From the IMG/VR virus record IMGVR_UViG_2522572164_000007: a stretch of DNA of 42,200 nt. One strand, written 5' to 3'. Source of the stretch: a virus. Its lineage: Duplodnaviria; Heunggongvirae; Uroviricota; Caudoviricetes. Below are positions 5,359 through 25,533 of this stretch, one piece after another. Below the pieces are notes generated by a model. The model did not search any database. It saw nothing but the letters and a program-made list of their open reading frames with translations, and had not been told where the DNA came from. The number at the start of each line of letters is the position of its first letter. Within the stretch, counting starts at the first letter, position 1. The position numbers were made by a program, and so were the translations under genes.

Positions 5359-7416
5359 TTATGCCGCAGGGGTATTAACCTCAAGGACAACGCTCTCAAA
5401 AGACACGCCATAAGTTGCCCCTTTGGTGACATCTGTCAGTGTCAGCGTATCTTTGGCAGGGGAAAGTGCATCTTTCACCATCTGGAATGCCTGGCCCGGA
5501 GTGCCATCCAGCACAGGCGTTACCTGGGCACTTCCCGCCGTAAACTTCAGGACAAGTGTATGCCACTGGTTATTGTAGGCTCCAAATGATCCCAGTTTCG
5601 TATTCCCCCCTGTTTTATGGTGCATCAGATTTAACTGGCCGCCTGTTGTCTGGAGATAATACGCCATCAGGAACGGTGTGCCTGTACCACTCATGGTTAC
5701 ACCTTCCGGGACCGTATCGGTGTGGAGGTAAATACCCAGAGCAAACTGGCCTTCTTTTACTTCACCTGACAGACGGAATTTACAGGTCAACTGACCACCA
5801 TGCTTCAGAAGTTCACCGGCTGCATCAGTTCCATGGGTAAGCGTCCAGGTTTTTCCGCTTTGTTTGGATACGGTCAACGCTTTACCTTCGTCCGTCAGCT
5901 GGATTGTACCATCTGTAATTTTCCAGCCCTGAGCCGGGGCTTCTCCTGCTGATGCTTTAAGTGAAAGCAGCGTACGGAGTGACGGGGATGTCGGATGGGG
6001 GGACTCACTGCCTCCTGGCTGACTACCTGTCGGCGCTTCCGGTTTCCCACCCGGCGCGGGCTGAGGCAGGGCTTCACCATCAGGGGCCACACCGGCAATA
6101 AATGCAGAGGTCAGACCTGCATATTTAAGAATTGCTGATGCAAAACGATCTGAGACCAGAAAACGGCGCGCCCAGGAGCTAAAATGGGTTGCCCTGGATG
6201 CTGTTGTCCAGTTGCCATCTCCCCGTGATTCCGCACCATAATACCCGGCAGAAGCGATATCCGGGTCGTGCTCCGGCAGGTTGGTCGCGGTTTTATTACC
6301 GAACTCATCGTGCATCAGTGGAACAAAGTGAATGTTCTCGGAAGCCCGGTTTTTATATCCGCTATAAATGGTTTCATATGCCGCCGGGTTCTTCTCTTTC
6401 CAGTCATAGGTTGTGTCACCACATAACCACGGCACACTGTCTGATGAACCACCAATACACTGACCGGAGAAAGCACCAAGATCCGCACGGAATTTTTTCA
6501 CCATCGCAGTAAACTGGGCACCATGCTGGGCCGGGGTCGCTTTAAGGTCTCCTTCCCCCTGAATCCATACGACAGATAACAGCACATTCTTTGGATTCGC
6601 CTCAAGTGCCGCTTTAGTTCGACTGACAAGATCCTGATACAGTGGGGTATCCACTCCCCAGCGTAGTGACGCCTCGGCTGCACCACTTGCCGGATCGAAT
6701 GAGCCAACTGCGCCGGTTGTAAAAGCAGAGCCGCCACGGGCACAGGGAACCAGTAAAATCCCGGCATCAGCAGGAATCACCGGTAATACTTTTTTCGCAA
6801 TATGAAGTCCCTGCCCCACACAACCATACTGCCCTTTTTTCAGGTCTGCTTTTGGATGGTTCAGCAGACTCATATTCTGAACATCATGAAGGCAGTGATC
6901 TGCTGGAATGATTTCATTGTATTTGCAGGGAATACCTCCGGGGGTTTGTGTATTCCTGCGTGCCAGCTGCATAATACGTGGATCAGGACGATCATAAGAA
7001 TCCGGAAGGGGCAACCCTTCACCATAAGATGAAGCATTGGACTGGCCGGCTATAACAATCACGTAATACCAGGAAGGGGAGCTGGAAGCCGTTTCATTTC
7101 CTGCCGGACGGGTATGTGTTTCTGCATTATCCCAGTCTGACGGTTCAGCAGTACCGGCAACATCAGCACTTAACGGAATGACAGCACCAATACCCGCTCC
7201 GGTAATTTCCACGTTCGGATCACCGGATACTGGCCTTACCCACAGGCAATCCTGTGTATTAAAACTGATGAGACAGTCAGCAAATGTCATTCCTCCTTTC
7301 GTTTCAGCAGGAGGAAAGGGAGCCTCAAGAAATGCCGCTGTACCACCGGAAACTTTAACGGTAAAGTTTCCGGGCATTGATGATAGTTGAACCCATTTGG
7401 ACGTCATAATATTCAT
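5359..7416 (-). CDS. Sialate O-acetylesterase, NanS-p-like (SGNH hydrolase) with extra N- and C-terminal domains
   Basis: 685-aa ORF with YVIVIAGQSNASSYGEG (GQSN block of SGNH esterases); overall architecture resembles the prophage NanS-p esterases of enterohaemorrhagic E. coli. Confidence 0.7.
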   Translation of the reverse strand: MNIMTSKWVQLSSMPGNFTVKVSGGTAAFLEAPFPPAETKGGMTFADCLISFNTQDCLWVRPVSGDPNVEITGAGIGAVIPLSADVAGTAEPSDWDNAETHTRPAGNETASSSPSWYYVIVIAGQSNASSYGEGLPLPDSYDRPDPRIMQLARRNTQTPGGIPCKYNEIIPADHCLHDVQNMSLLNHPKADLKKGQYGCVGQGLHIAKKVLPVIPADAGILLVPCARGGSAFTTGAVGSFDPASGAAEASLRWGVDTPLYQDLVSRTKAALEANPKNVLLSVVWIQGEGDLKATPAQHGAQFTAMVKKFRADLGAFSGQCIGGSSDSVPWLCGDTTYDWKEKNPAAYETIYSGYKNRASENIHFVPLMHDEFGNKTATNLPEHDPDIASAGYYGAESRGDGNWTTASRATHFSSWARRFLVSDRFASAILKYAGLTSAFIAGVAPDGEALPQPAPGGKPEAPTGSQPGGSESPHPTSPSLRTLLSLKASAGEAPAQGWKITDGTIQLTDEGKALTVSKQSGKTWTLTHGTDAAGELLKHGGQLTCKFRLSGEVKEGQFALGIYLHTDTVPEGVTMSGTGTPFLMAYYLQTTGGQLNLMHHKTGGNTKLGSFGAYNNQWHTLVLKFTAGSAQVTPVLDGTPGQAFQMVKDALSPAKDTLTLTDVTKGATYGVSFESVVLEVNTPAA

Positions 7417-7506
7417 CCTGTTCCTGAATAAACAGAATTATCATATCCACAGACCGATAAACGCCATTTTGCGTTAATTCAGTAAAGGCCCAACAAAGGG
7501 AGCGTC

Positions 7507-8067
7507 TTATTTTTCCGAAACGCTCGCAGGATAATAACGATAAAGGGTTGAAAGGCCGATATCAAAAATAAGTGCCACCTGTCTTCGACTGACACCCCCG
7601 GCCAGTAAACGCCCGACCTGCTCGTATTGTTCCTGCGTGAGACGACGGGGTCTGCCGCCGGTTCGTCCCCTTTCACGGGCAGCTGCAAGACCAGCCCGTG
7701 TCCGTTCGACAATTAATTCACGCTCCATTTCTGCCAGCGCACCCATTATGTGAAAAAAGAAGCGCCCCATGGGGGTTGACGTATCAATGTTGTCAGTAAG
7801 ACTACGAAAATTTATCCCCTGTTGCTGTAATTCATCTGTCAGCGCAACAAGGTGGCGCATACTGCGCCCCAGCCTGTCCAGTTTCCAGACCATCAGTGTG
7901 TCACCGGGTTTTAGTTTCTTCAGTGCCCGCTTCAGTCCCGGCCGCTGTGTCGTTTTACCACTCATTTTATCTTCAAAAATCTGCTCACATCCTGCACATT
8001 CCAGCGCATTTCTTTGTAAACCTGTGTTCTGGTCATTTGTTGATACGCGTATATAGCCAATCAGCAT
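7507..8067 (-). CDS. gin: Serine recombinase, DNA invertase Gin/Hin/Pin/Cin family
   Basis: 186 aa; MLIGYIRVSTNDQNTGLQRNAL... is the resolvase/invertase catalytic N-terminus, with a C-terminal HTH (GRPRRL...STLYRY). Confidence 0.9.
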   Translation of the reverse strand: MLIGYIRVSTNDQNTGLQRNALECAGCEQIFEDKMSGKTTQRPGLKRALKKLKPGDTLMVWKLDRLGRSMRHLVALTDELQQQGINFRSLTDNIDTSTPMGRFFFHIMGALAEMERELIVERTRAGLAAARERGRTGGRPRRLTQEQYEQVGRLLAGGVSRRQVALIFDIGLSTLYRYYPASVSEK

Positions 8068-8122
8068 GTATTTACCTTCCTTAAAAAGAGGTGAAAATGC
8101 CTTTTAAAACAGATATACGGCA

Positions 8123-8148
8123 TCCCTGAAACCTCGGTTTACGGGATA
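8123..8148. other. gix-like recombination site (gin-proximal boundary of the invertible segment)
   Basis: Core AAACCTCGGTTTAC at 8129..8142 matches the Mu gix core as I recall it (TTATCCAAAACCTCGGTTTACAGGAA). Confidence 0.6.
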
Positions 8149-8492
8149 CTGTAAACAGGGCCGCGAATGCCCTGCCATCGAACGGAGCGGCTGTTGCAGC
8201 GAATAAACTCGCCACTCCAAGAAATATTAATGGTGTCCCATTTGACGGAACGCAGGATATAAATATTACATCGGGGATGACGCAGTCTGTGGCTGACTCA
8301 CGTTATGTTCAAAGCATTCGAAGAGGTTCAAGGTCAACGATTGGAATGCAATATAATATTTTTGAGGTTCCTGACGGATGCGTACTTACAGGGCTTGATG
8401 TCGCTGGTGATGGTAATGCAACGGTAACCGCATATTATCGACCTGTTCAGTTTCTGATAGATGGTTCGTGGAAAACAGCTTCCAGCGCATAA
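8130..8492 (+). CDS. Silent alternative tail-fibre C-terminal cassette (S'v-like; promoterless in this orientation)
   Basis: Open frame from the gix site to the stop at 8492; NLGLRDTVNRAANALPS...[23 protein letters not shown] parallels residues of the expressed fibre, then a divergent C-terminus. Confidence 0.6.
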   Translation, partial: NLGLRDTVNRAANALPSNGAAVAANKLATPRNINGVPFDGTQDINITSGMTQSVADSRYVQSIRRGSRSTIGMQYNIFEVPDGCVLTGLDVAGDGNATVTAYYRPVQFLIDGSWKTASSA

Positions 8493-8571
8493 AAGTGCAG
8501 TAGTTCAAAAAACAGATTATCTGAATAAATATATGATGATTTTGTCTTTTCAACAAAAACAAGGTGAAATA

Positions 8572-9093
8572 ATGGAGCTTATTAACGTAAAACGATATTA
8601 CCCGGAACACAAACCCTATGGTGAGGATGTTCAGTATTTCCAGAGTGAGGACGGAAGGGATTTTTATGAATCTATCCCGCTTTTCACAAAGAAATACAAA
8701 CTCTGTATTTCGCCTGTAACGGGTATTATCTGCTCTGTTGCTGAAGATGTCTCTGCTTTATATCCGGCAGGTTTTACTGTTGTTGAAGTGGACGAACTGC
8801 CGGAAGGTGTGAATATTGACGGTAACTGGCAGTTTTCTGATGGCCTGATATCAAAGGTGCCGGTAAACTGGAAGACGGTTGCTGAAAAGCGTCGCTCATC
8901 GCTGCTCCAGGAAGCCAACGAAACCGTGGATGACTGGAAAACAGAATTAAAACTGGACATGATTAGCGATGAAAATAAATTACAGCTGACGCGCTGGATG
9001 GCGTATATCCGACAGCTTAAAGAAATGCACTTTAATGATATTGCCAGTGAGGGGCATTACCAGGCGATTCCCTGGCCGGAAAAACCGGAATAA
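8572..9093 (+). CDS. Tail fibre assembly protein (U'-like)
   Basis: ORF 8461..9093 trimmed to the ATG at 8572 with an AGGTG RBS; C-terminus ...IPWPEKPE resembles the conserved Tfa C-terminus. Confidence 0.65.
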   Translation: MELINVKRYYPEHKPYGEDVQYFQSEDGRDFYESIPLFTKKYKLCISPVTGIICSVAEDVSALYPAGFTVVEVDELPEGVNIDGNWQFSDGLISKVPVNWKTVAEKRRSSLLQEANETVDDWKTELKLDMISDENKLQLTRWMAYIRQLKEMHFNDIASEGHYQAIPWPEKPE

Positions 9094-9127
9094 TTCAGAG
9101 GGTGCATTCAGCACCCTTTTCTGTGGT

Positions 9128-10039
9128 TTACACTGAACTTACCGTTCTCCAGGCATTATTAATATAAATCTGAACCGGGCGATAATAGACCCCACCGATA
9201 TTGTCCGCAGACCGGGAGCCGGTTTCCTGCACGTTAATACCGGAAAGCATACAACCGGAAGGTGCGCTGTAATTCCATGATATTTCATTGCCTCCGGGTG
9301 AATGATAGCTCTGTGCTCCAAGCTGAACATTCTGTACATACCGGCCATCTGCGGTTGACTGCGTCATTCCTGACGTGATGTTGATATCCTGCGTTCCGTC
9401 AAAAGGAACGCCATTAATATTTTTTGGGGTGGCGAGTCTGTTTGCTGCCACGGCGGTTCCACCCGATGGCAGGGCATCAGCAGCCTTATTTACCGTTTCC
9501 CGTAAACCGACGTTATCGATAAAAGCGCCTTTATCCGGAATGTCTGCGCCATTCTGGTCCCTGCGCAGGTAACGGTTATCACCTTCGCTCTTGCTGTAAA
9601 CATCCAGATTATTACGGGCGGTTCCCTTATTCTCCAGGTCGGCGAGATTCTGATCCTTCGCCAGGGCATTAACGTCACCGGGACCAAGACTGTTTTTTGT
9701 GGCAAGCGTCCCCAGACCAAGATAACCACGGGCCAGACGCTGGGCCTCCGCACCGGCATCAGCAATTTCTTTCAGGTTATTTTTCCGGGAAAAAGCATTC
9801 GCAGCGATAATGGCTTTAATAGACAGCGTAAGCTGGTTTAACTGCGCCTTATCCGGCTGAATACTGGCTTCAGCCAGAATATTCAGCAGTTCGGCCTGGA
9901 GAATATTCAGCCAGTCCTGACCAATCCAGCTGATACCTTTTTGTCCGTCACCTTCGGTAAACCAGGTGGTGGTATTACTCTGCGCCGGTGCCAGCGCAGG
10001 CATATTCGCCACGCCGGAATTATTATCAACATGGAACAT
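9128..10039 (-). CDS. Tail fibre protein (S-like; constant part plus the currently expressed variable C-terminus)
   Basis: ORF 9128..10093 trimmed to the ATG at 10039, which overlaps the upstream stop by 1 nt; contains the second gix site; last gene of the tail operon. Confidence 0.7.
9493..9518. other. gix-like recombination site inside the tail-fibre gene
   Basis: Reverse complement reads AACGTCGGTTTACGGGAAAC, sharing TCGGTTTACGGGA with the site at 8123..8148 in inverted orientation. Confidence 0.55.
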
Positions 10040-10599
10040 TAAATATTCTCCTCTTCGTGACTGTTTGCATATACGTAAATAAACGTCTGCCATGCAGGCT
10101 TATAACGGTTCAGAATACATTCCAGCGCACCGCCTTCATAAATACGCAGCGGCGTGAGAATATCATCCAGCACATTCATATTCCGGTAGCCGGTTTCACT
10201 GTTAATCGTGACAATACTGACCCACTGTGAATCCGGTGATGGCTGAATATCTATTTCATAACCAAACTCTGCCGCAAACCGGATATAAAATTCACGGTTA
10301 AGAGAGGGTTTCATCCGGTATTTATTCCCGGCATAACGCTGACGCTCCTGAATGGTTGCGCCGGTCATATCACATTCCGGTAACCCCAGATAACGCTCCC
10401 AGTCTTCCAGCAGCAGACGGGATGAATCAGGAAAACGTTCTGCCAGCATCTGGTTACCGGTCCAGGAAACACGCTCCGTGGAATGACTGAGGCCCAGGCA
10501 CAAAGCCGCAAGAACGGATGACGGCCGCTTATCCCATGCCAGCCCGTCAGGCAGCAACTGCAACAGGGCGCGCTGATGCGGGGTCAGGGTTACAGCCAT
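10039..10599 (-). CDS. Tail/baseplate protein (Mu gp48-like)
   Basis: 186-aa ORF at the Mu gp48 position between the baseplate J-like gene and the fibre. Confidence 0.55.
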
Positions 10600-11675
10600 G
10601 TGATTTCCCCCACGGTCAGCAACTCTGTATCTCCGGCCATCACGGACTTCAGCGGGCTGCGAACTTCAAAATCCTCCAGTCCTTTCACCCCTGCAACAGC
10701 CCGCCAGAATGATGAAGGCAATACAAGTCCACCCGGCCGCGATTCGTTATAAAGCAGGTCTGTTAATGCCTGTTTTACGGCAGCCTGATTTTCCGGCGTT
10801 TTGGGTACAATCCTGATCTCAAACGCCACCGGCTTATTGGTCAGCTTAAACACGCTGATTGTCGGCCCAAGTGGCTGACCAACGGGCTGGCCCGTCGCCG
10901 GATCATCATGACTGCGGATATAATCCGCCACCCGCTTCACATCACCTTCTCCGGGGAAAATGTCAGGGTTATTATCCTGAACAAAAGTCACACCAACACT
11001 ACCCGCCTCAGGCCATTCAGGCTTACACCATGCCCGCGTCACGCCCGGTACTTCCCGTGCCCAGCGTTCAAAATCATACTGTGTTCCCCCTGATGGCGGG
11101 TTCTGTACCCGGAATACCAGCCTGGACAGCAACTCCGGCACCGTTTCCACATCCGCACCACCGGTGAGTCCCGTGCCGGTGACCGTGGCTGTCTGGTTGA
11201 TGCCCGCCTGTGGCGTGATAAAGGACAGGCGGGTTCCGGTCGGGGTATTTCCAGCGCGCCCCGCACTTTCCGCCTCCACATTAACATTCAGTGTTCCGGC
11301 TTTTCCGGTCGCAGAGCCGGTGATGCGGTACACAACCCCATCGCTTCGCTGAAGGAGTACGCCTTCCGTGATCCCTGCATCCGTGGTCAGCATCAGTTGT
11401 ACCGGTCCGTCAGCGCGGGAAGCCGGTTTACGGATGACACCCCAGAATGCGCAGTGTTTCAGGAGTTCGGCTTCATCAGCTTCTGTCGGAATTATCTGCC
11501 GGGAGATCCAGGCCAGATGTTCATGCTCCTGTGCTGACAGACCCGCCAGTGCATACGCAATGGCATTCAGGGTGGTTTCATTCACGCCCGGCTGCGAACC
11601 GGGCAGGCGCTGGCTGATATCCTGTTGTGTCTGTGTGATCAGTTGCGCCAGTGGTAAGGGCTGATAAGGCATCAT
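10590..11675 (-). CDS. Baseplate J-like protein (Mu gp47-like)
   Basis: 361-aa ORF; position and size. Confidence 0.65.
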   Translation of the reverse strand: MMPYQPLPLAQLITQTQQDISQRLPGSQPGVNETTLNAIAYALAGLSAQEHEHLAWISRQIIPTEADEAELLKHCAFWGVIRKPASRADGPVQLMLTTDAGITEGVLLQRSDGVVYRITGSATGKAGTLNVNVEAESAGRAGNTPTGTRLSFITPQAGINQTATVTGTGLTGGADVETVPELLSRLVFRVQNPPSGGTQYDFERWAREVPGVTRAWCKPEWPEAGSVGVTFVQDNNPDIFPGEGDVKRVADYIRSHDDPATGQPVGQPLGPTISVFKLTNKPVAFEIRIVPKTPENQAAVKQALTDLLYNESRPGGLVLPSSFWRAVAGVKGLEDFEVRSPLKSVMAGDTELLTVGEITWL

Positions 11676-24201: not shown

Positions 24202-25533
24202 TTAATCAATATCTCCTTCCAGTACCTCAAGCATTCCACCCCGGATATCCGATTTCAGCTTATCCATATTGATAACCCGGTAAGCATTCACAATCACATC
24301 CAGTTTATCCGGCTGACGCTTCAGGCTGTACGGCGCATTAACGGCAATCTGCACACTGCTATCCTTACTTTCCACGATATACATCAGATTGTTGTGGCGT
24401 TTGTCCCACAGCACCGCTTTTGGCTTTGCCAGCATTGCCGGTAATCGACCGAAATCCTCCGGCGTCAGGGCGATACCGTCATTCTGATGTTTCATGCTGT
24501 CCGCATGGAGCACATTTTTACCGCTCATCGCCAGCAGGCGGGCCGGTGGCGTTCCCGTCCGGCTTTCCACCGCCTGCGCAATGCTTTCGGTCATAAAGCC
24601 CAGCGTGCGGATATCGTTACCGCCTCGCCGGGTTTTCATGATGTTTTTTGCCCAGATGCGGAACGCCAGCTGCCGCTCCGGGCTGTTGTTCATCTCCTGC
24701 ACTACCATTTCCCGCAGCGCCGGGCTTTTCACCTCGATCAGTTTACGGATCAACGCCTGGTCTGTGCCGAACGCCGCCGAGCCGGGGTTATATGACCAGC
24801 CCACATCCGGTGTCATGGTTCTGGTGCCATCTGAATATGTGGTCACCGGCATTTCTCTGACTTCTCCGGTCTGCTTATCCACGCCAGCCTCAACATTGCG
24901 GGTGGAGAGATGATCCTGACCGGATGAAACAGACAGCCCCATCGCATCCAGACGGGCCTGAGACAATGGCCGGACACGGCAGCGACAGTTCCAGCCATTG
25001 GGCGGGTAGTGTGTATTCCAGAACGGATCGTCATAGCGGAATACCAGCCCGTTAAGGGCGGAATGTGCCGGGCGGGTGCGGCTGTCCATCACCGCCACAT
25101 ACTGCCAGAACGGATGCGTGTCCGTGTTGTTCATCATCTGCGTGTAACGCCCGGCATTGTAAGCCACACGGGTGTTCACGTTGTAAATCAGCGCCAGACG
25201 GCGGGGACTGCCCAGCTGCACTTCTTCCGCGTTACCGGCACTGTCCACCACAATCTGTTTTCCCCACCATCCCAGCTTTTGCAGGCGGGGTGTCAGCGTG
25301 CGAATAAATGCTTTCTGTGAAATCCCCTCATCAACAGCACGCTGCACTTCCGCCTGTAGTGTGGTCAGTACGTCCAGGCGTGCCACTTTTGCCGCCGTGA
25401 ATGAACGGGCATGAACATCCGCGTCTGTTTCGAACCAGTTCCAGCTGATATGCGCCCCTTTGGCGCGGAAGTATGCCACCGCCTCTTTTGAGGCAAGTGT
25501 GGCGGCATAACCTAAATCAATCCCTTGTGCCAT
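24202..25533 (-). CDS. Head morphogenesis protein (Mu F-like)
   Basis: 443-aa ORF overlapping the portal gene end. Confidence 0.7.
   Translation of the reverse strand: MAQGIDLGYAATLASKEAVAYFRAKGAHISWNWFETDADVHARSFTAAKVARLDVLTTLQAEVQRAVDEGISQKAFIRTLTPRLQKLGWWGKQIVVDSAGNAEEVQLGSPRRLALIYNVNTRVAYNAGRYTQMMNNTDTHPFWQYVAVMDSRTRPAHSALNGLVFRYDDPFWNTHYPPNGWNCRCRVRPLSQARLDAMGLSVSSGQDHLSTRNVEAGVDKQTGEVREMPVTTYSDGTRTMTPDVGWSYNPGSAAFGTDQALIRKLIEVKSPALREMVVQEMNNSPERQLAFRIWAKNIMKTRRGGNDIRTLGFMTESIAQAVESRTGTPPARLLAMSGKNVLHADSMKHQNDGIALTPEDFGRLPAMLAKPKAVLWDKRHNNLMYIVESKDSSVQIAVNAPYSLKRQPDKLDVIVNAYRVINMDKLKSDIRGGMLEVLEGDID

Follow-up and report, generated by a model that had tools for sequence, protein, structure and literature searches.

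The window considered here (the whole stretch analysed, 42,200 nucleotides of a tailed phage; IMG/VR record IMGVR_UViG_2522572164_000007, Caudoviricetes) is occupied from ~3.3 to 42 kb by a Mu-like prophage whose late genes all lie on the minus strand. Its tail-fibre gene runs into a 1,375-bp segment that is bracketed by two gix sites, at which the DNA invertase Gin acts, and that holds the expressed C-terminal tip of the fibre (cassette A), a silent alternative tip (cassette B) and, linked to the silent tip, the gene for a tail-fibre assembly protein (Tfa) (Table 1). This segment is a working miniature of the G segment of phage Mu, and its switch is real and active. A molecular question follows from its layout; when the only tfa gene is antisense to the fibre, as it is in the window, what assembles the expressed tip?

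The invertible segment and its crossover site

The fibre is of the Mu S type. Besides the alignment of its constant N-terminal part (Sc) to Mu S, residues 228–302 match the Mu S tip (residues 434–503), with ~240 central Mu S residues missing, and the region of the Mu S tip that is homologous to tip A belongs to the S chain that was crystallised with U. The A and B tips, a third type (C) carried by some relatives, and the Mu S and S' tips align over their whole length, and no additional intramolecular chaperone domain is present in A, B, C or Mu S. When positions 8134–9510 are inverted in silico, Sc is joined in frame to cassette B to give an open 295-amino-acid (aa) fibre, followed by tfa; in other words, inversion exchanges the last ~125 codons of the 303-aa fibre for an alternative tip. 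This in-frame fusion, together with the open reading frame (ORF) of the expressed gene, bears out the preliminary description of the locus, which had placed an expressed and a silent C-terminus inside the segment, and the intact 295-aa Sc-B gene occurs naturally in E. coli FORC_044 and SMN197SH3. Comparative sequence evidence establishes both tips as functional receptor-binding ends.

The product of the neighbouring gin gene is 75% identical to Mu Gin and about 71–72% identical to the Cin proteins of P1 and P7. The first 130 nucleotides (nt) of gin, which include the counterpart of the P1 recombinational enhancer, have a mean column identity of 88% in a three-way alignment with Mu gin and P1 cin, a value that coding constraint alone could explain. 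Between gin and the nearer gix site, the spacer equals that of Mu in length and holds no extra element, and an Rfam scan of 7400–10200 returned nothing relevant. Taking the Mu gix core to be GTAAACCGAGGTTT, AAACCTCGGTTTAC at 8129–8142 is an exact 14-nt match to its reverse complement, and GTAAACCGACGTTA at 9502–9515 has two mismatches to it. These are the sole two core matches in the window (0.20 expected; 1 of 100 shuffles reached two), which bears out the two inverted gix-like cores first noted beside gin. The two 26-bp sites are inverted relative to each other and have their central dinucleotide (TC/GA) in common. Just inside each site lie arms of inverted coding homology that encode the first half common to both cassettes; their presence had been recognised correctly, and their length, first put at about 150 bp, is a little greater.

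Has the segment inverted in nature? We searched 5,426 complete E. coli genomes for the region as it stands in the window and as inverted in silico, and found the window form in one piece in 182 genomes and the inverted form in 25, with some copies 99.0–99.6% identical to the window in either orientation. The same skew is seen among IMG/VR loci, eight of which have the window (Tfa-antisense) orientation and three the inverted one, and in a wider protein collection the exact Sc-A fibre is encoded on 298 contigs and an Sc-B fibre on 153. The skew could stem from slow inversion combined with clonal inheritance, from a biased equilibrium or from selection. Some genomes of Shiga toxin-producing E. 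coli (STEC) hold multiple copies, with up to 8–9 places matching the region, and E. coli SMN197SH3 (NZ_CP024056.1) carries two copies in opposite orientations, at ~2,024–2,027 kb and 4,543–4,546 kb. The inverted copies of SMN197SH3 and FORC_044 differ from the in-silico gix-crossover product at 10 and 29 of 2,801 positions, respectively, and at their junctions they show zero mismatches to it. Since the junctions are clean despite arm differences at 40 of 182 positions, which start 3 and 17 nt from the gix site, the alignments place the crossover in these two copies between 8133 and 8147, that is, at the gix core. Homologous recombination over the 182-nt arms was considered as the cause of inversion and is ruled out for the two inverted copies, whose junctions fit a gix-core crossover. 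As read from these junctions, Gin recombines the inverted 26-bp gix sites at their central GA/TC dinucleotides and flips 1,375 bp, which upholds the proposal that this is a Gin-invertible tail-fibre segment.

The prophage itself is, by sequence comparison with O157:H7 genomes, an Sp18-type Mu-like prophage of E. coli O157. We make this assignment because the 2.8-kb region around the segment is matched at up to 99.6% in E. coli chromosomes, at 99.0% in many O157:H7 genomes and at up to 99.6% in other STEC, and because two Shiga toxin (Stx) phage records label it 'inserted Bacteriophage Mu-like phage'. An invertible region of Sp18 in E. coli O157:H7 Sakai was already mentioned in 2009, in an account that predicted Sp18 to be intact and found its DNA packaged, infectivity being outside that study's tests (PMC2669165). 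The single Tfa is not discussed in that account (PMC2669165), and neither the single Tfa, nor the mapping of the crossover, nor selection on the tip without Tfa is described in the literature on Sp18-type prophages that we examined.

Table 1. Features of the invertible fibre segment and its surroundings, by window position
Feature	Position	Strand	Details
com-mom	4270–3334		beyond esterase gene
Esterase, 685 aa	5359–7416	-	SASA domain + DUF6645; between gin and com-mom
gin, Din-family serine DNA invertase, 186 aa	7507–8067	-	Pfam Resolvase 1.4e-51, HTH_7 1.7e-14
gin nt 19–90, counterpart of recombinational enhancer annotated in P1 cin	7978–8049	-	P1 record
gix site adjoining gin	8122–8147		ATCCCTGAAACC TC GGTTTACGGGAT; crossover dinucleotide 8134–8135
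Inverted coding homology, left arm	8130–8311		182 nt, 78% identity; partner 9333–9514
Cassette B, silent tip, ~119 codons	8136–8492	+	no own start codon; stop 8490–8492; in-frame fusion after inversion
Spacer, cassette B to tfa, 79 nt	8493–8571	+	non-coding, AT-rich
tfa, sole tail-fibre assembly gene, 173 aa	8572–9093	+	AAGGTGA ribosome-binding site; Caudo_TAP
Hairpin between convergent tfa and tip A	9097–9119	+	terminator scan; terminator-like on tfa strand
Expressed fibre, 303 aa	9128–10039	-	ORF
Cassette A, expressed tip, 126 codons	9128–9508	-	ORF; no co-oriented Tfa
Inverted coding homology, right arm	9333–9514		partner 8130–8311
gix site within fibre gene	9497–9522		TTCCCGTAAACC GA CGTTATCGATAA; crossover dinucleotide 9509–9510
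Constant N-terminal part of fibre (Sc)	9511–10039	-	residues 1–198 align to Mu S 1–191, domain E=1.3e-43
gp48 baseplate gene	10039–10599		followed by 303-aa tail fibre
gp47 baseplate gene	10590–11675		upstream of gp48

The lone tfa gene and the constraint on tip A

A single Tfa, tied to the silent cassette, already figured in the preliminary description of the segment and stands up to a dedicated search. The protein belongs to Pfam family Caudo_TAP (PF02413; 1.9e-18, 67.3 bits against a cutoff of 22.1) and matches Mu U (PDB 5yvq_B) at 2.3e-15. When all ORFs of at least 40 aa in the 42.2-kb window were scanned with a Tfa hidden Markov model built from 84 sequences and a second model of the N-terminal domain, no second Tfa was found among them, the next best match having E=1.8. 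Additionally, the 34 bp between the tfa stop and the tip A stop are too few to hold a second Tfa downstream of tip A. The layout of the Mu G and P1 C segments, in which each variable part has its own assembly gene, is therefore not that of the window, where one Tfa accompanies two tips.

Is the Tfa-less tip a working part? All 16 of the 16 related loci, which comprise 9 distinct sequences, have an intact cassette A, and compared with the window its ratio of nonsynonymous to synonymous substitution rates (dN/dS) is 0.08–0.12 at dS 0.26–1.4, a constraint on a par with that of the baseplate gene gp48 (0.05–0.07); by this measure tip A is under strong purifying selection without a co-oriented Tfa. 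Diverged relatives keep the layout, in that A is without Tfa and the Tfa-linked cassette is either B or type C, the latter being closer to the Mu S tip. An early suggestion that the prophage might be locked in a crippled orientation is thus refuted, because cassette A is intact and constrained and the layout is kept in diverged relatives, and also because both orientations occur, with the exchange mapped to the gix core in the two inverted copies examined.

Tip A probably uses a Tfa, to judge from its homology to the Mu S tip that was crystallised with U and from A-like tips elsewhere that are directly followed by one. For example, the A-like tips of Rac-SA53, a P2-like phage and SfMu are 60–64% identical to A over the last 73–77 residues, and in each case a Tfa starts 1–2 nt after the tip. 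The Rac-SA53 tip shares 64% identity with A and 37% with B, and outside this prophage group no Tfa is closer to the window Tfa than the one that follows that tip (53% identical overall, 66% in the N-terminal domain). The N-terminal domain of Tfa binds the fibre, according to the Mu structure as summarised in one account (PMC9608196). The comparison suggests that a Tfa of the window type would suit tip A. Within the group, the pairing of tips and Tfas looks loose at the sequence level; nearly the same Tfa allele adjoins B in the window and C in one relative (L004), and cassette C adjoins two Tfa alleles that are only 64% identical to each other.

The preliminary description had implied that a single-Tfa layout is rare. 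It is in fact frequent among Gin-linked fibre loci, and the invertible region of the Sp18 prophage type was already in the literature (PMC2669165). A scan of IMG/VR with Gin gave 80 loci, ~50 of which had enough upstream DNA to be read; of these, roughly 20 carry convergent pairs of Tfa genes as in Mu and about 30 a single Tfa. By inspection, at least five true single-Tfa lineages are independent. Three are Mu-like, namely the Sp18 type, the L029–L037 lineage (Gin 81% identical) and a locus of Citrobacter braakii (L006); two are P2-like, namely L040–L043 with L085 and L095, and L072 with L083, the latter pair with three cassettes and one Tfa. The Citrobacter locus (L006:5800–8300, strain ATCC 51113) has three gix-like sites, three fibre ends and one Tfa, of 229 aa; it was the only informative one of 11 loci found in a search of genome contigs with the fibre, and there the A-like tip is the Tfa-linked one. 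The L077 type was set aside as a further single-Tfa group, a short conserved ORF after its other cassette looking like a Tfa remnant. Each of the named phages Mu, SfMu, P1, P88, pro483 and SEN8 has two Tfas.

The two layouts differ in how far tfa starts from the end of the preceding cassette. Starts were assigned by a ribosome-binding-site-based caller, which agreed with all 14 of the starts checked that were annotated or supported by homology. In the 23 two-Tfa loci, almost every one of the 46 Tfa genes begins −4 to +20 nt after the cassette stop, and across the five true single-Tfa lineages this gap is 51–121 nt. In Mu, SfMu, P1, P2-like phages and Rac-SA53 it is 1–3 nt. The contrast points to the spacer as the mark of a separate unit in single-Tfa segments. 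In the P2-like lineages, this unit has a candidate promoter. All eight P2-like single-Tfa loci carry an ATTGTG...ACA (TGT-N12-ACA) dyad 84–88 nt before the tfa ATG (L043:5886–5980, L085:6455–6549 on the minus strand, L072:5266–5356, L083:5661–5751), which lies in the spacer in one lineage and spans the cassette stop in the other. The dyad fits the activator sites annotated in P2, and a −10-like hexamer, spaced as in P2 late promoters, sets the transcription start ~55 nt from the dyad centre. This extended sequence recurs, with its spacing kept, ahead of the tail-sheath gene that directly follows gin (compared at L043:7548, L072:7548, L085:7581 and L099:5065). No such box stands at that position before the tfa genes of two-Tfa loci, and in the L043 group the spacer is 89–96% identical where tfa third codon positions are 63–65% identical. 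From these sequence features the lone tfa of the P2-like lineages appears to be its own Ogr-type late transcription unit within the flipping DNA, and tfa expression there would therefore be orientation-independent.

A shared Tfa or a Tfa-independent tip

We favour, tentatively and with a little less than even confidence, the explanation that one Tfa is shared by both tips and is expressed in either orientation. The single Tfa, although physically linked to B (or to C in some relatives), would serve both tips. In the B orientation tfa would come from the late tail-gene transcript; in the A orientation, which is the state of the window, tfa transcription would start inside the segment, probably in the 79-nt spacer that travels with tfa. 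We propose this internal start by analogy with the P2-like segments, in which tfa appears to have its own late promoter. The hairpin between tfa and tip A (−16.5 kcal/mol, z=−2.9, followed by UUUUCUGUGGUUU on the plus strand, with a weaker U-run on the minus strand) reads as a good terminator on the tfa strand, which fits a shared Tfa and a Tfa-independent tip alike.

Several observations weigh against a shared Tfa. No sigma-70-like site of at least 9/12 occurs on the tfa strand in 8068–8571, and relaxed promoter scoring of six tfa spacers gave best candidates no better than those of shuffles. The late-promoter class resident in this phage, SSAAANCCNGCC-N15-17-TANNNT, which we derived from the regions upstream of lys and I, has exactly three members in the window, all on the minus strand (31896, 31397, 23470) and lying before C, lys and protease gene I, with none on the plus strand of the window and none near tfa. 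The P2-type TGT-N12-ACA box was likewise not found in the tfa spacers of the Mu-like segments, including that of the window. Furthermore, the tfa spacer shows little conservation when B-type relatives are compared with C-type ones, and in part it is like a decayed cassette end; the correlation between spacer and layout could be a recombination scar. In C-type relatives the spacer, 114–121 nt long, holds a decayed B-like cassette end (L004:3174–3297 and L005:3175–3297, minus strand), so cassette C was inserted upstream of an older tip.

Other features of these promoter regions concern the phage rather than the fate of Tfa. The resident class is probably, on sequence grounds, the phage's Mor/C-type promoter class, distinct from the Mu CATAACCCC box; the Mu box was not found in the late promoter regions of the window, whose C protein is only 39% identical to Mu C, which explains its absence. 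The RNA fold of the tfa spacer is no better than those of shuffles (z=+0.6). We also noticed that AAAACAGAT occurs three times in the window against 0.36 expected (8106–8114 and 8509–8517 on the plus strand, 25253–25261 on the minus strand), twice on the tfa strand, in the gin–gix spacer and the tfa spacer, and that the tfa spacer of the L030 group carries TTTTAAAACAGAT. As promoter evidence AAAACAGAT was set aside, given that its third copy is within a coding gene; the repeat may be chance.

What if tip A simply folds and trimerises without Tfa? The chaperone would then be needed only for B (or C) and might stay on the fibre and aid host binding, such that inversion would switch the tip together with a Tfa cap. 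This alternative, which we regard as less likely but as a live competitor of a shared Tfa, would account for the failure to find a promoter for tfa in the A orientation, for the finding that the tip without Tfa is of the A type in both the Sp18 type and the L030 group, two Mu-like lineages, and for purifying selection on tip A without a co-oriented Tfa. Chaperone independence can evolve, as is known from T4 gp37 mutants that bypass gp38. Mu Tfa is reported to remain on the virion and help host recognition (PMC9608196). Set against these points are the full-length homology of the A, B, C and Mu S tips, none with an extra intramolecular chaperone domain, and the A-like tips of three other phages and of Citrobacter L006 that are directly followed by a Tfa. 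Finally, the P2-like lineages appear to have given tfa its own late promoter, which argues that their Tfa-less cassettes still need Tfa.

A Tfa supplied in trans, by other prophages of the host or by a second Sp18-like copy in the opposite orientation, would also satisfy a tip A that needs the chaperone, and we consider this improbable. The means exist, as E. coli O157 is host to numerous lambdoid prophages that have Tfa genes, genomes can hold the 8–9 matching places mentioned earlier, SMN197SH3 has one copy in each orientation, the pairing of tip and Tfa looks loose, and complementation between prophages is documented in O157 Sakai (PMC2669165). But the layout persists from one host and phage type to another, Citrobacter and P2-like phages among them, and selection for dependence on a chance helper is therefore unlikely; additionally, other prophages are not co-induced with a Mu-like phage, and Sp18 is not mitomycin-inducible (PMC2669165).

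More doubtful still is the possibility that the A orientation is an off or defective state without working fibres, which would make inversion a phase variation of infectivity and not of host range. Although no Tfa lies downstream of tip A and the infectivity of Sp18 has never been put to the test (PMC2669165), an unused cassette would decay, whereas tip A is intact in every related locus with low dN/dS out to dS 1.4, and the A orientation is the commoner one among both the complete genomes and the IMG/VR loci. Least probable of all is that the segment mainly serves the host by making fibre-derived proteins that block adsorption of other phages, for which the e14 P segment (StfE2) of E. coli K-12 (PMC12529663), with the same invertase and fibre cassette family, provides a precedent, since the segment here sits in an apparently complete Mu-like prophage with full late genes, whose DNA is packaged in Sakai (PMC2669165), and its fusion products are full-length fibres on a baseplate-binding N-terminus.

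Known systems, neighbouring genes and implications

The closest well-known relative is the Mu G segment (Sc-Sv-U / U'-S'v). Shared with Mu are the order gp47–gp48, fibre, invertible segment, gin and com–mom, in one direction, and the homology of the fibre N-terminus and tip to S and of Tfa to U. The Mu segment is 3 kb long, in contrast to 1.4 kb in the window, and its fibre has 504 aa; the fibre of the window is shorter because each variable part is ~125 aa, compared with ~335 in Mu. Mu also has two Tfas, with a 2-nt gap before tfa, where the window has one Tfa and a 79-nt spacer, and Mu lacks the esterase gene that the window has between gin and com. Sp18 of O157:H7 Sakai and its STEC relatives carry the same type of element as the window. 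Like the window, the P1 C, p15B Min and e14 P segments combine a Din-family invertase, inverted 26-bp sites and alternative fibre C-termini; unlike it, P1 and e14 have two convergent Tfa genes (U/U' and tfaP/tfaE), and P1 has cin on the other side, with cixL at the cin 3' end. The P2-like single-Tfa loci resemble the window in having one Tfa-linked cassette and one or two further cassettes without Tfa, a 72–95-nt spacer before tfa, and both orientations among those sampled, and they differ in their fibre tips, in their Tfa N-domains and in the P2-type late-promoter box. Carotovoricin Er of Pectobacterium, in which the invertase Ein exchanges fibre C-termini and thereby alters the target range (PMC13195805), is akin to the window in this exchange but is a tailocin, not a phage.

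Elsewhere in the prophage, homologues of Mu C, Lys, I, N and P span 31.8–12.7 kb. Mu has nothing at the place of the SASA/DUF6645 protein, whose versions in relatives are 61–67% identical to it; its gene may be cargo for modifying surface sugars, or may encode a virion enzyme. In RefSeq, the segment is annotated inconsistently (window 8081–8266 (-) and 8277–8492 (+); L001, L106). The silent cassette appears either as a 67-aa 'tail fiber protein' or as a pseudogene, an antisense 61-aa 'hypothetical protein' is drawn over the gix site, and one inverted genome lacks a single annotated gene for its intact 295-aa fibre.

The switch and the single Tfa are established; they add a variant to a familiar system, in a prophage whose invertible region had been noted before. 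A little more tentative than our preference for a shared Tfa is the broader proposal that single-Tfa segments are a distinct design, in which tfa would be autonomous, one promiscuous Tfa would serve two or three tips, and the spacer would mark the unit; in the window, this would imply either an unrecognised type of promoter or, alternatively, that tip A is the first Mu-S-type tip to fold without Tfa. The gap before tfa, long in single-Tfa segments and tight in two-Tfa ones, offers a simple genomic marker of tfa as a separate unit.

For the genomics of E. coli O157, these findings mean that the Sp18-type prophage has a live host-range switch. The wider interest lies in the general question of chaperone sharing. 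Tips and chaperones are the parts that are swapped when phages and tailocins are re-targeted, and the working rule has been that a tip moves with its own Tfa. One Tfa beside several interchangeable tips suggests that these chaperones are much less specific than assumed, or that some Mu-S-type tips need none, and either outcome would simplify host-range engineering.

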